Part shown: positions 4,341-11,424 of the stretch, in pieces
Numbering within the stretch: position 1 is the first letter of the stretch
Layout: each line of letters starts with the position of its first letter
Assembly: GCA_002245135.1 (NCBI GenBank)
Contig: NGBS01001177.1
Span: forward strand, 47,441-67,440
DNA length: 20,000 nt
From: Proteromonas lacertae
Taxonomy: Eukaryota
Direction: 5' to 3'
Position numbers and translations under genes: made by a program
Notes under the pieces: model-generated
The model's input: only the letters and a program-made list of their open reading frames with translations
The model's database searches: none
Told to the model about the DNA's origin: nothing

Positions 4341-6170
4341 ATGGAGGAAAATGATGATGAACTTATTGATAAATTTAACAAAGAAATTTTCAATTCTACA
4401 GTTGAGAACTCTAACACAGTTAAAGAAATAATAGAAAGATGTAAATTATCTGAAGAATTTAGTTTAAAAATGCTAAAGAATAGTCAATATTTACAATTTG
4501 TTCAAACAAACATAAAGAAAAGTGAAGAAGAACTTAATAGAAACTCATTTATGTGGAAATTACTATCAATATTAACATCTCATGGTATGAATGAATATTT
4601 TTTCGATTGAATTTAGATTCTTTAGTATTAGTATTTATAGAGAATGAGATAGATGAAAAAATATATTCTGTAATTATTAACCCTTTATGTAGATTGTTAA
4701 ATACAAATACAACTGTAAAAACTGATATTTTATCTTCATTTTACAACCTAATTAGTAAAGATAATGAGAGTATATATATATATATTTGAATATAATTAGA
4801 GAGAATATGTAACAAGACAGATTTATATAAATGTACATTTTGGTTATTGAAGTTAATGCCTGAATTTAAATCAGCTCCACCATCATCATTACTAATTCCA
4901 TTTTATAATATTATATTACTATTCTGTGAAAATAATGGTATATATTTTAATTTATGTATGTATAGAACAATTTTTAAACTCATTAAAAAATAATGTTGGT
5001 ATAATTGATGTTTATATGTTGTATCCAAATGAAAGAGTTAGTAAATTGTGTGAGAAAGTTTGTGAGTTGATTGATCGTATATATTCAAGTTATAATAGTA
5101 ATTATTTATACAAAAAATAGCATTTAATGAAGAAGAAGATGATGATGATGAATGTGAAAATACTGAAATAAGTAAAAGTGATGATAATTCTACAGATTCT
5201 GACAATCAACCCGCTAATACAAAACTTGATTTATATTTATTAAGAAAACATATAATGGAAGATGAAAAAGAAAAAACAGATGCCAAACCTTTAGAAATAT
5301 ATAAACAAAGAGAAGAAGAGATAAAAAAAGAATTAGAGAAAAATGATTATAAAGAGAATATCGAAAAAGAGAGTAGAGCTCCAGATGGTGCAATTAATTC
5401 AAATAATAAAGTGAATGAAGATAGTTATTTATTACCACAAAATTCAATAAATCACCAGCAAATTGATTCTCATTCAATTCCATCATTATCTTTACCACCC
5501 ACTTCAAATAAAATCAATTTAGTAGAAAGAGAGTTTAATGAAGTACTTAAAAAGAAGTTTGATGAATATATGGAAAATTTCTTGTATATTTTATTAATTT
5601 TTATATATTGTATGAATAGATGGTATGATTTTTCTATATTATATAATATAATAATATAGTGATGGATGGTATGTTTTTCATTTTTTTCTTTATATCTTTT
5701 TATATTATAATTATTTATATACTTCTAAACATATTATTATTATCTAATGTTTAATAGTGGATCTCAGTATATTATTATCATTTTATATTTTTCTATAGAT
5801 TGTATATTTCAATTAATTCATTATTATAATGGTAATAGGGAGTATTAAAGGAAAATTCTATATTTCTTAATAGATCGTATATTTCTTATATCTATTGCAT
5901 GTTTATAGTGATTATGTAGATGGAGTTATATCATATCCGTATGTTTTTTAAATTTTTATCTTCTTAATTTGTAGAATGTATAACATTTTATAAATCATTT
6001 CATAGAGAGTATTATTTTTGTTTATATTTATTCAATAGATGTGACACATAGTATATTATTATACTGTTCTTATAAATAGCGGGTATTTTATCACATTTAT
6101 ATATAATTATAGAAATAAATACACAGTGACAATAGAAGATGGTGAAATTTTTTTTGAACCGTTACAATGA
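4341..6170 (+). CDS. Unknown protein: helical N-terminus, acidic/low-complexity linker, C-terminal zinc-ribbon-like module encoded by micro-exons (16 introns)
   Basis: Phase-1 introns 4585-4616, 4770-4799, 4938-4965 and 5077-5120 join the ORF pieces in frame. Twelve further phase-2 introns (5584-6112) give ...ENFLCDGCGSQLESDYVDGVISYPIECDTYGNKYTVTIEDGEIFFEPLQ, with TGA at 6168-6170. Start codon uncertain. Confidence 0.75.
5584..6112 (+). other. Micro-exon array: 12 introns and 11 internal exons of 3,9,9,3,3,3,30,3,3,12,3 nt
   Basis: Introns: 5584-5619, 5623-5659, 5669-5757, 5767-5798, 5802-5838, 5842-5873, 5877-5908, 5939-5974, 5978-6005, 6009-6038, 6051-6079, 6083-6112. All start GTAT and end TAG; 11 of 12 are 28-37 nt. 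Confidence 0.8.
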
Positions 6171-6224: not shown

Positions 6225-7164
6225 GAGTTTTTCAAAATAAATTTGAAATATATGTTGAATATATCATTTCATTAAAAAGAATTTCTAGAAAAAAATATTG
6301 GATAAGGCATATGAACTGATAATAAAAAATCTCTTACTTCTTCTGGGTTGTATACAGTAGATTCTCTGCATACTCTTTCTACTTCTTCTGAGTTATGTAA
6401 GATTGATCATCATTCTCTTCAAAGATCTTAATGAATTGTGGTGCTTCTTCTTCTGGACATTTTTGAGCAACTTTAACTACTAATTGTAATGAGCTTATGT
6501 TTGTTGATAACATTTCTTTTAAGCATTCCATTCTATCTTCTAAATCAGTGTAATGTTCTAATGCTCTTTGAGTTAAACCAGCATTTTTGCATAAGTTACC
6601 AACATAATCTTTATCGTGATAAGATAACAGTTTATTAGATAGTATTTTATCCACTACTTGAAAATTACCTGCTGGCTTATCACCTGCTAATACTCTAAAT
6701 AAGAACTTATCACATTCTCTAATAGCACCAACATTGGCAAAGGCATCAGCAACTTTTGAAGCATCAACTGTTGCTCCTTTCTTTTTCCAAGCTTAAATAG
6801 CAAATTCAGCAGCTTGTTCTGGGTTTACTCTTACCATTTGTGATACTAAATAACCATAATCTGGATCATAACCAGACTTTACTAAGTAAGCTTGAATCTT
6901 ACCAAAATCATTCAATTGTAAGAAACAATTAATAACTTTCTCATGAGCATTACCTTTGAAGTATACTTGTAATGCAACTCTGGCATCATGAGGAGCAATT
7001 AAATCACCTAAAGCTTCTGATGGTGTAATCTTATCATTTTTTTATAATTTCCCAATCATTGCTACTTTTCCATTTGATACTAATGGTCCACATAATTCAA
7101 CAGTTTCAATTTCATTCAACTTTGTCATTACCTCTGTGACATTGACTGGTTCATATTTAGACAT
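6225..7164 (-). pseudogene. CHC: Clathrin heavy chain pseudogene with internal deletions, nonsense codons and a frameshift
   Basis: CHC-like motifs: KLNEIETVELCGP, DKITPSEALGDLI, ALQVYFKGNAHEKVINCF, LCKNAGLTQRALEHYTDL, ECLKEMLSTN, EVERVCRESTVYNPEEVRDFL. In-frame TAA at 7042-7044 and 6793-6795; frameshift near 6390. Confidence 0.9.
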
Positions 7165-7235
7165 TTCTACAGAAGATTATCAAAATTAACATGAGAAAAT
7201 ATATTTGGCTTGTTTCAAAATAAATATTAAAATTA

Positions 7236-8435
7236 ATGTTTACTGAGATTCGTGGTAATTTAGAAATATCTGAAGATATATTAACCAATACACCATCTAG
7301 AAGGGTTGGAATTAGTGAGGAAGTTGAGATGAAACACCGATTGTTTTGTAGTAATTTGATAAAGGAAGGTGGAATGTTACTTAAACTATATCTTTTTGAA
7401 TAGAAATGTGTTATATTTCTTTAATATAGTATAATCCTCAAGTAGTAATAGTTACATCTCAAATTTTAGCTCACCGTTTTCTATACCGAAAATCGTTAAA
7501 AGAATATAGTGCATTTCAAAGTAAGAATATAATTAAATCTAGTTTTTATAGTTGCAATGACAACCACATTTTTAGGAAGTAAAATCGAAGAAGAAATAAG
7601 AAGTGTGAATAGTGTAATAAATGTATTTATGCGAATATTTCAACGATATAAAAATATAAAGTGTGTAATACCATCCAGTTGTTTAGAAAGAGTAGAAAAA
7701 TGGAAATCAATAATCTTAAAAACTGAATTAGATATATTAAGTGAATTAGGTTTTCTGTTATACAGTTTAAATGAGCATCCACACAAATATATATTATATT
7801 ATATATCAGAATTAGGTGGAAATAAAGAATTGGCTCAAATATCTTGGAATTTTTTAAATGATTGTTTTCATAGTGATATTTGTGTAAAATATAGTGGAGA
7901 ATGTTTGGCTTGTAGTGCAATATTATTGGGAAGTAGAAAATTAAAAATAAAATTACCTGATAATCCTCCTTGGTGGAAATTATTTCATAATGATGGAAAG
8001 AATATCATTTTTATATTAATTTTCATATTTTTATTATTATTTCTTTAATTTTATGTAATTATTAATGAGATATGTAATAGAATAATGGAATTATACCAAT
8101 ATCCAAAAATAGACTGGCTTGATTCCTTGTTTGAAGATAGTATAGAAAATTCAGAAATAACAAAAAACGAGTTGTTAAGTGAAGAAGAAAAAGAAGAAGA
8201 AGAATATGAAAAAGTGATAAGTAGTATTAATGATAAAATAGAGAATAATGAAAATAATAGAAAAAGTATATCATCATCCTCTTCCTCATCATCAACATCA
8301 TCTTCCTCATCATCATCAACATCATCTCAATCATATAGAAGAAATAAACATCATCATAAAAGATATAGTAGAAGTAGGAGTAGGAGTGGTAGTAGGAGAA
8401 GAAAACATAGATATAATAGACATTCTCACCATTAG
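7236..8435 (+). CDS. CCNL: Cyclin L (cyclin boxes plus C-terminal poly-Ser/RS region)
   Basis: Motifs TPSRRVG, GGMLLKL|PQVVIVTSQILAHRFFYRKS, FLGSKIEE, VINVF, ILSELGF, EHPHKYI, QISWNFLND, LPDNPPWWKLF, and an RSRSRS tail. Introns: 7388-7434 (AT-AA), 7521-7551 (GT-AG), 8002-8058 (AT-AA). Confidence 0.9.
7388..7434 (+). other. Putative U12-type (minor spliceosome) intron with AT-AA ends
   Basis: Donor ATATCTTT; branch-like TTTCTTTAAT at 7416-7425. Removal restores the conserved LLKLPQV exactly. Confidence 0.75.
8002..8058 (+). other. Putative U12-type intron with AT-AA ends
   Basis: Donor ATATCATT; the same TTTCTTTAAT at 8040-8049, again 9 nt from the 3' end. Removal joins WWKLFHNDGK to IINEICNRIMELY in frame. 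Confidence 0.65.
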
Positions 8436-9601: not shown

Positions 9602-11424
9602 ATGAATTTTATTGATTTAAATAATCGCTGTTATAAAAATAGAGATGACTACGATGAAGATAAATTTATTGTATAAGTTTGTATATAAAAATATAGGAGA
9701 GATGTTCGAAAGATGTAGATTTATCGTCAAATATCAAAAAATATATAAAAGTAGATGCTGAACATATGAAGATAATAAAGATATATAATATTAGTGAATT
9801 GTGCAATAAAAATGTTTTGAAATTGTATGAAAAGAACTCATTGTTACAAAGTGTAGATATGAGTAATTTGGTAGTATCAGATATTATAAGATTGATAAAT
9901 GAAAGTAAACTGATGTTTATTCGTGGTTATTTGGATGATAGTTTTGAGAATCAGAGACTAGTTAGTTTACTGGATAATGAAAGTGATATAGAGGATATAT
10001 GTAGAGATATATGTGAGTGTATATGTAAATTTGACAGTTTAAATATATATAATGTAAATATAAAACCAAGTAATCTCTTATATAATAATGAGAATAGAAT
10101 AAAACTATGTGATATATTAGTGAGAGATTTAAGAAAAGAAAACGAAATAAAAGATATGTTATTTGATTCTCCTGAAATATTAGAAAATAAGGAAATTAAT
10201 ATAGAAAGTGATATTTGGAGTTTTGGTTGTATAATATATTATTTAAGTGAAAAGAAAAAGTTATATAACGATGTGAAAGAAAAGACAGAATTAATAGAAA
10301 GACAAAAACAGTTATTTAAAGAAGAAGAAGATAATGATGAGATAAATAAATGTAAATATAGATTAATATTAAAAGAGATGTTAAAAGTGAATATAAGTGA
10401 TAGAATTCATGTAAATAGTTTAAAAGAAATATTTGAAAGAAAAGATAAAACAAAAGAATTGAATAAATTAGAATGTAATTTAATATTGAATAATCCAAAT
10501 GTTATTTATTATATAAGAAATGATTTACCAATGAGAATAGAAATATTAAATTATATGTTGAATAATGAATGTATATTTTATAATATAATATAATATAATA
10601 TATTTAAATTAGATATAATGAATGAAATATCAAATTATTTTTTAAGTTTTCATGAATCCAAATATTTATTCTTTATGATCTATTTAATATGGCATAAAGG
10701 AAGTGATGAATATACAAATAAAGTTCAAAAATTAGTATGTAGTGAATTTATGAATAGTTTTTATGACTGTGATAAAACTATCGAACAAAAGATAATATTA
10801 AGCACTTGTGAAAGATTTGACATCGAATTATTTGGTCAAAATATAAGGAATGAAGGATTAATCTATTTAAGTGATAATTTTTCAGTTATAAGTGAAATAA
10901 AGACATTGGATTTGGGTAGTAATAAAATAAGTTATGAAGGAATGTTAATATTTAGTGAAAATATGAAATATTTAAGTAATTTAGAAGTATTAGAAATAAG
11001 TGATAATGAATTATATGATGAATCAATAGTAGCAATATGTAAAAGAATAAATAGTTTAAAGAAATTAAAAATGTTAGGTTTAAGTGATGTAAAAATGAGA
11101 GAAAATGGTTTTAAGATATTAATTGAAAGTTTAAAAGAATTAAAACTGCTGGAGAAGCTGAATTTAGAAAGAAATAAGATAAAAGATGTAGGAATGAGCT
11201 ATTTAATAAATAATTTGATGAATGTTTGTTATTTAAGTGATTTAGTATTAAATGAATGTGAAATAAGTGAAGAAAAGATAGTAGACTTAATAAATAACAT
11301 AAAACAGTTAAATAATTTGAAGAGATTGAGTTTAAACAATAATAATGTGAAGAATAAACAACTAGTAATGACTAGAATAAGTACAATAACTGAATATAAC
11401 TCAAATGTAACTATTCGAATATAA
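9602..11424 (+). CDS. Pseudokinase domain plus C-terminal RNase-inhibitor-like leucine-rich repeats
   Basis: ATG at 9602; introns 9671-9696 and 10571-10612. Kinase-like motifs NIKPSNLL, IKLCD, SPE, SDIWSFGCI, ML...DRI. About 28-aa LRRs such as IKTLDLGSNKISYEGM and LEKLNLERNKIKDVGM. Confidence 0.85.

Follow-up and report, generated by a model that had tools for sequence, protein, structure and literature searches.

A 529-nt stretch of a predicted gene of Proteromonas lacertae (positions 5584-6112, forward strand, of the 20,000-nt stretch of DNA analysed here, hereafter the window) can be tiled completely into 12 GTAT..TAG introns and 11 small exons. We show that this array is real at the DNA level and lies far beyond chance. 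Its layout is extreme, and the product predicted from it is a small zinc-ribbon-like domain spelled by micro-exons. The reading we favour, with a probability of roughly 0.6, is that the array undergoes intron-defined serial splicing, mainly constitutive, and that this likely yields one main product of 415 residues.

In order along the forward strand, the array introns measure 36, 37, 89, 32, 37, 32, 32, 36, 28, 30, 29 and 30 nt and the exons between them 3, 9, 9, 3, 3, 3, 30, 3, 3, 12 and 3 nt (81 nt altogether). Seven of the 11 exons are 3 nt long, three of them consecutive (exons 4-6); every intron is in phase 2 (12/12), and every exon is a multiple of three and no longer than 30 nt (11/11). 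Intron 1 (5584-5619, 36 nt, phase 2) falls inside a Leu codon and is followed by micro-exon 1 (5620-5622, 3 nt), which carries two bases of Cys371; intron 2 (5623-5659, 37 nt) splits that codon as TG|T. Micro-exon 2 (5660-5668, 9 nt) precedes intron 3 (5669-5757, 89 nt, without an internal AG), which splits the Cys374 codon, again as TG|T, and micro-exon 3 (5758-5766, 9 nt) follows. Introns 4-7 (5767-5798, 5802-5838, 5842-5873 and 5877-5908) alternate with micro-exons 4-6 (5799-5801, 5839-5841 and 5874-5876, 3 nt each) and lead to micro-exon 7 (5909-5938, 30 nt), the mid-segment between the two knuckles. Introns 8-10 (5939-5974, 5978-6005 and 6009-6038) are separated by micro-exons 8 and 9 (5975-5977 and 6006-6008, 3 nt each), and micro-exon 10 (6039-6050, 12 nt) supplies the second knuckle with Cys393 and two bases of Tyr396. 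Introns 11 and 12 (6051-6079 and 6083-6112) enclose micro-exon 11 (6080-6082, 3 nt), after which the last coding exon (6113-6170) carries the predicted final ribbon strands. The predicted joined exons are free of stops and in frame with both exon 5 and the last exon, as far as the TGA at 6168-6170. A preliminary description of this DNA had claimed the 12-intron tiling, the exon lengths and the uniform phase, all of which were reproduced exactly at the DNA level. The same holds for its stop-free product, which keeps the reading frame of both neighbouring exons, and for the two intron-split Cys codons of the first CxxCG knuckle.

The parse leaves little room for choice. GTAT occurs 13 times and TAG 14 times in the stretch, and 12 of each are used, so that the array parse is almost forced. 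A rule that goes from each donor to the first TAG whose end lies 25 nt or more away, and from there to the next GTAT, reproduces exactly the same 12 introns. A codon-model parser, for which we fixed the start and the stop and set the intron model ourselves, gave the identical 12 array introns at all four intron penalties, supporting the micro-exon gene model proposed earlier. The array holds seven TAG-NNN-GTAT junctions, a number reached by none of 5000 dinucleotide shuffles (maximum three), and two more occur in the 39.5 kb of remaining window. With any spacing of up to 15 nt, 10 junctions were observed, and 2 of 5000 dinucleotide shuffles reached that number. The triple-junction pattern matched once in the window and in none of 200 shuffles. 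An origin of the array by chance is excluded. Elsewhere, the triple-junction pattern matched 85 viral and at least 120 prokaryotic stretches (about 310 prokaryotic stretches estimated). Near-identical repeat units were present in 145 of the 206 sequences matching the pattern, and the 40 lowest-GC of 420 matches were, the window excepted, tandem repeats or isolated matches.

We compared the array introns with 24 of the 34 introns predicted elsewhere in the window; 10 doubtful ones had been dropped, and one gene was left unparsed. Array and control introns are similar in length (median 32 vs 35 nt, p = 0.74), in GC content and in splice-site score (13.3 vs 12.7 bits, p = 0.58), although the donor match is partly circular because controls were kept partly for their GTAT donors. 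Control introns span 27-53 nt, and array introns 28-37 nt plus the one of 89 nt. Internal AG is depleted in the array introns (1 vs 4.9 expected, P = 0.019); in the controls, 8 were counted vs 12.4 expected (P = 0.07). None of the 12 array introns has a minor-type donor (GTATCC or GTATCT). The array thus has the features of an ordinary short intron, namely a GTAT donor, a TAG acceptor, a length of about 30 nt, AT-richness and few internal AG, and its introns resemble the ordinary (U2-type) short introns of the window. Phase, composition and density set the array apart: phase 2 accounts for 12/12 array vs 4/24 control introns (Fisher p = 1.5e-6), the exons have 36% GC (29/81) vs 10.5% (42/400) in the intron interiors (p = 1e-7), and each kb of coding sequence contains about 145 introns vs 2.4, an approximately 60-fold difference. 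On these densities, the term 'intron-gain hotspot' used in the preliminary description holds as a description only.

The window has about 25% GC, the standard genetic code and short GTAT..TAG introns. The predicted gene starts at an ATG at 4341, has 17 exons and encodes 415 residues, the micro-exons contributing 81 of its 1245 coding nt. Coding exon 1 (4341-4584) begins a predicted all-helical, ARM/HEAT-like region. The predicted exons 2-4 (4617-4769, 4800-4937 and 4966-5076) are set off by four predicted introns, all in phase 1 (4585-4616, 4770-4799, 4938-4965 and 5077-5120), and exon 5 (5121-5583) encodes an acidic linker of low complexity and, immediately ahead of the zinc ribbon, a predicted helix, all on the forward strand. 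The introns of the gene thus fall into two blocks of uniform phase, four in phase 1 and then 12 in phase 2. Exon 1 has two relatives (62% and 45% identity) among 1.84 billion representatives; its relatives are seven sequences from short Logan contigs of 1.1-2.1 kb, whose frames continue beyond the Gly at the first-intron site, which suggests that this intron position is common to them. The structure predicted for exon 1 is all-helical (pLDDT 75) and finds generic ARM/HEAT folds; the best Z of 7.3 is below a meaningful level, so the match indicates a common helical repeat only. Other searches of the N-terminal part were negative within their scope: Pfam gave nothing above cut-off for exons 1-5 scanned singly (neither NACHT nor ankyrin was matched), a PDB sequence search with the exon-1 profile gave a best E of 0.24, and neither exon 1 nor the end of exon 5 had a usable match in the ESM Atlas. 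An API5 Pfam match (E 0.006, below cut-off) appeared in one exon 1 relative only. Searches of longer proteins with exon 5 or with the exon-1 alignment found no match, and nor did a protein search with the last part of exon 5, each of which is weak evidence; nine unspliced ORFs of the window are absent from the protein collection. A metagenome match of 16 residues (L001) lies opposite a prokaryotic gene and was rejected as chance. By crude hydropathy, neither a signal peptide nor a membrane segment was detected (best 8-residue mean of -0.06 in the first 30 residues).

The pattern encoded by the array is C-x2-C-G, a distance of 18 residues between the second and third Cys, C-x2-Y-G and then a hydrophobic strand. 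The second knuckle is therefore C-x2-Y rather than C-x2-C, with Tyr396, one base from Cys, at the fourth ligand position, so zinc binding may be lost. We scored the spliced product against a LysW-like profile of 27 archaeal sequences from 30 loci, all of which lie below the TIGR01206 family cut-off. It reached 13.1 bits uncorrected and 11.1 bits after correction for composition; exon reorderings scored as high once in 2000 (uncorrected) and once in 3000 (composition-corrected), residue shuffles once in 2000, and none of six unspliced frames did (maximum -2.1 bits). Nine of 2047 skip variants outscored the full product. HMMER reported two local knuckle matches rather than one domain, and global alignment to LysW-like ribbons ran from end to end with two small gaps. 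Other ribbon profiles fit worse (aIF2-beta 4.8 bits, TFB 4.3 bits), and MJ0042-type reference ribbons were not found in the 61 genomes searched. When the exons were reordered, 785 of 20000 arrangements were stop-free and five of 20000 yielded two knuckles. The rarity of two-knuckle reorderings, together with the profile score, indicates that exon order encodes the zinc-ribbon-like pattern, and this order dependence, though indirect, is the best evidence that the array exons would be used as predicted. The preliminary description's zinc-ribbon-like product is supported; the C-x-x-Y of its second knuckle had gone unremarked. Like the LysW ribbon, the predicted domain has C-x2-C-G, a similar spacer, a second knuckle with G and then a hydrophobic strand. 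Unlike LysW, it has Tyr as fourth ligand, scores only 11-13 bits and is fused to a eukaryotic protein of 370 residues; LysW also has an acidic carrier tail, which the array product lacks. The resemblance of the predicted domain to LysW is a likeness of fold and not family membership.

Joined exons 1 and 2 (5620-5668) share eight of 12 bases with exon 10 (6039-6050), and both knuckles have introns at two equivalent codons. The sequence match may reflect an old knuckle duplication or chance. A recent duplication of an intron plus exon unit was not detected: the intron interiors are no more alike than controls (p = 0.15), and the intron ends gave p = 0.29-0.74. The best junction pair is identical at 18 of 26 positions (p = 0.08, or 0.02 when the array's own ends are re-paired). 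Recent tandem duplication of array units has left at most a faint trace.

On the favoured reading, the major spliceosome likely removes the 12 introns by intron definition, which the preliminary description had invoked and which is a plausible splicing mode for the array, taking neighbours one at a time. Each intron would be recognised across its own roughly 30 nt, so that exon size should hardly matter. A 3-nt exon presumably cannot hold spliceosomes on both sides, and adjacent introns would then be removed in turn. Single skips would need introns of 61-135 nt (61-98 nt for exons 4-9), about twice the usual size (27-53 nt in the controls), which would make inclusion the default. Published micro-exons behave in comparable ways: in C. 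elegans, micro-exons with short flanking introns are independent of the helper factor PRP-40 (PMC8378409), and for the constitutive 1-nt exon of Arabidopsis APC11, intron definition with removal of the two introns in turn has been proposed (PMC4674806). Uniform phase likely reflects a filter, in that introns gained beside older ones would be tolerated only if the small exon between them was a multiple of three; an occasional skip would then drop one residue and keep the frame. The protein itself probably acts as a scaffold of the ARM/HEAT kind inside the cell; its C-terminal ribbon would bind a partner, perhaps holding zinc through three Cys and another ligand.

Some observations count against serial inclusion. 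Constitutive micro-exons are often not multiples of three: only about half of plant micro-exons of 1-15 nt are (PMC8831610), and 27 of 97 Coprinopsis exons of 1-3 nt are 3 nt long (PMC12230235). Here, 11/11 array exons are multiples of three (p of about 6e-6 if the exons are independent). Since constitutive exons need no symmetry, the 11/11 suggests that skipping happens or has happened; such symmetry requires either skipping frequent enough for selection or a phase-preserving origin. The 89-nt array intron shows that this gene can use introns above the usual length, and serial splicing leaves the 60-fold intron excess unaccounted for.

Skipping is the core of an alternative that we consider possible but unlikely, in which the array varies loop length: exons 1-3, 10 and 11 would always be kept and exons 4-9 skipped combinatorially, shortening the loop from 18 to as few as three residues. 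The preliminary description had proposed a combinatorial diversifier without such a restriction, and for the whole array this is disfavoured. In a phase-2 join, the codon at the junction takes its first two bases from one exon and its third from another, which can produce a stop. Loss of exon 3 alone creates a TGA and loss of exon 11 alone a TAA; early stops occur in 905 of 2048 skip patterns, and 68 of 2048 stay open with three Cys. Stops form at 13 of 66 skip junctions vs 4.5% expected from codon usage. Both the early stops and the excess of stop junctions argue against free shuffling of the whole array. The loop-only version has more in its favour: with the ligand exons fixed, none of the 64 patterns contains a stop, and together they yield 62 different loops of 3-18 residues; all junctions that form stops include the end of a Cys (TG) or Tyr (TA) exon; and all 11 array exons are symmetric. 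A precedent is reported for the codon-sized, alternatively spliced exons of truffle nank genes (PMC4986451, PMC13449251). However, a stop-free loop is not significant, since seven exon ends without TA or TG have a chance of about 0.5, hand-computed from window codon usage. The array splice sites are as strong as those of controls, the skips would need introns of 61-98 nt, hydropathy gives no signal peptide, and exons scanned singly contain no NLR domains. A wider proposal, slightly more doubtful again, is that one-codon arrays are a recurring eukaryotic device for zinc-binding modules, in which six exons tune the loop and stops at mis-joined ligand exons discard ligand-less products. Where exons 8 and 9 (5975-6008) join, a further TAG arises 5 nt behind the intron 8 acceptor; this TAG would compete if intron 9 left first, a hint that splicing order matters.

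We regard as improbable a third reading, also offered in the preliminary description, in which the array serves as a timer or sensor of splicing capacity: 12 serial 3'-end steps would tie full-length yield to spliceosome activity, and the zinc ribbon would be present only once all 12 introns had been removed. Retention of any one of nine of the 12 array introns does truncate the protein, whereas introns 1, 10 and 12 if retained would add residues in frame, and 50 of 69 constitutive plant micro-exons have a flanking detained intron (PMC8831610). Against this, the array splice sites are not weak, the RNA structure of the region is not unusual (z -0.47), no Rfam match was found in the region, a sensor does not require uniform phase, and nothing links the protein to splicing. 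That the array is mostly bypassed as one 529-nt intron, or that the gene is decaying, is very improbable: removal of 5584-6112 leaves an open, in-frame product without the ribbon, the fourth ligand is Tyr and an adjoining clathrin-like fragment with two stops is a likely pseudogene, but all 24 array splice sites are intact, the exon pieces are rich in GC and their order matters, 529 nt exceeds the longest control intron tenfold, and exon 1 is conserved in two relatives.

Codon-sized exon arrays are already in print. The genes known as nank in Tuber contain tens of codon-sized exons that are reported to be alternatively spliced (Iotti 2012, via PMC4986451 and PMC13449251), so that the novelty claimed in the preliminary description was too strong. 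No one-codon exon array from a protist was found in the printed literature searched, which covered few subscription journals. Like the nank genes, the array gene has runs of one-codon exons within its coding region. It differs in having seven 3-nt exons rather than tens, in its protist host and in its product, which is ARM/HEAT-like with a zinc-ribbon-like domain and not an NLR; moreover, alternative splicing and family expansion are reported for nank, whereas the array gene is known from DNA alone. In layout the array resembles truffle nank genes, and it would work like other intron-defined micro-exons. With the 1-3 nt exons of APC11 (PMC4674806), Coprinopsis (PMC12230235) and Drosophila, where 3-nt exons are described (PMC8042270), it shares exons that need intron definition and introns removed in turn; those are single exons and often not multiples of three, whereas here 11 follow in succession, all multiples of three.

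Two families of secreted proteins invite comparison. Schistosoma MEGs are secreted, consist mainly of micro-exons, have introns of 0.2-5 kb and produce demonstrated isoforms (PMC8293314; 10.1101/2023.06.21.545858). Consecutive short (up to 36 nt) symmetric exons that can be skipped without a frameshift are common to both (11/11 here). In the array gene, however, micro-exons make up only 81 of 1245 coding nt, the introns are 28-89 nt rather than 0.2-5 kb, crude hydropathy gives no signal peptide and many skips create stops; it is not a MEG. Aphid bicycle genes form a large family of secreted salivary effectors with many small internal exons and a phase-2 bias (10.1101/2021.09.24.461719), features that the array shares. 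The bicycle pattern spans the whole gene, whereas in the array gene only one C-terminal domain shows it (12 of 16 introns in phase 2, the four upstream ones in phase 1), and the array protein lacks the signal peptide of such effectors by hydropathy. It is not a bicycle gene.

Even with constitutive splicing, the array would take the spliceosome to a natural limit: 12 introns lie in 83 coding bases, some 60-fold more densely than in the surroundings, and neighbouring introns presumably cannot be processed simultaneously. The order and fidelity of intron-defined splicing could be measured directly in one 650-nt amplicon. Gene finders and read aligners would drop the whole domain, so such domains may be absent from protist annotations. 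Skipping of the loop exons, should it occur, would extend the truffle-type one-codon diversifier to protists and to zinc-binding modules, and would give one intracellular ARM protein a splicing-made repertoire of binding tips.

Other features of the window deserve mention. An adjoining CFAP46 gene (Pfam PF25439) indicates a flagellum. Tail to tail with the array gene, on the reverse strand (6379-7165), lies a fragment of about 260 codons that resembles clathrin heavy chain and is interrupted by two in-frame TAA, likely a pseudogene. A cyclin-L-like gene (7236-8435, forward strand) has a first intron (7388-7434) without a GT donor; the frame of the cyclin box is restored if it is read as an AT..AA intron of 47 nt, which starts with ATATCTTT and has a branch-like motif rich in pyrimidines, and this intron is a candidate U12-type minor intron. 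In a RING/TRAF-like gene, a phase-2 intron (12946-12920, reverse strand) splits a Cys codon as TG|T inside a zinc finger. One predicted gene (14348-17424, forward strand) combines Myb, a Gln-rich stretch, ankyrin repeats, a histone deacetylase and a PHD-like finger, an unusual predicted HDAC architecture. Finally, a degenerate kinase-like domain is fused to LRR repeats at 9697-11424 (forward strand), where the sequence has a strong purine skew.
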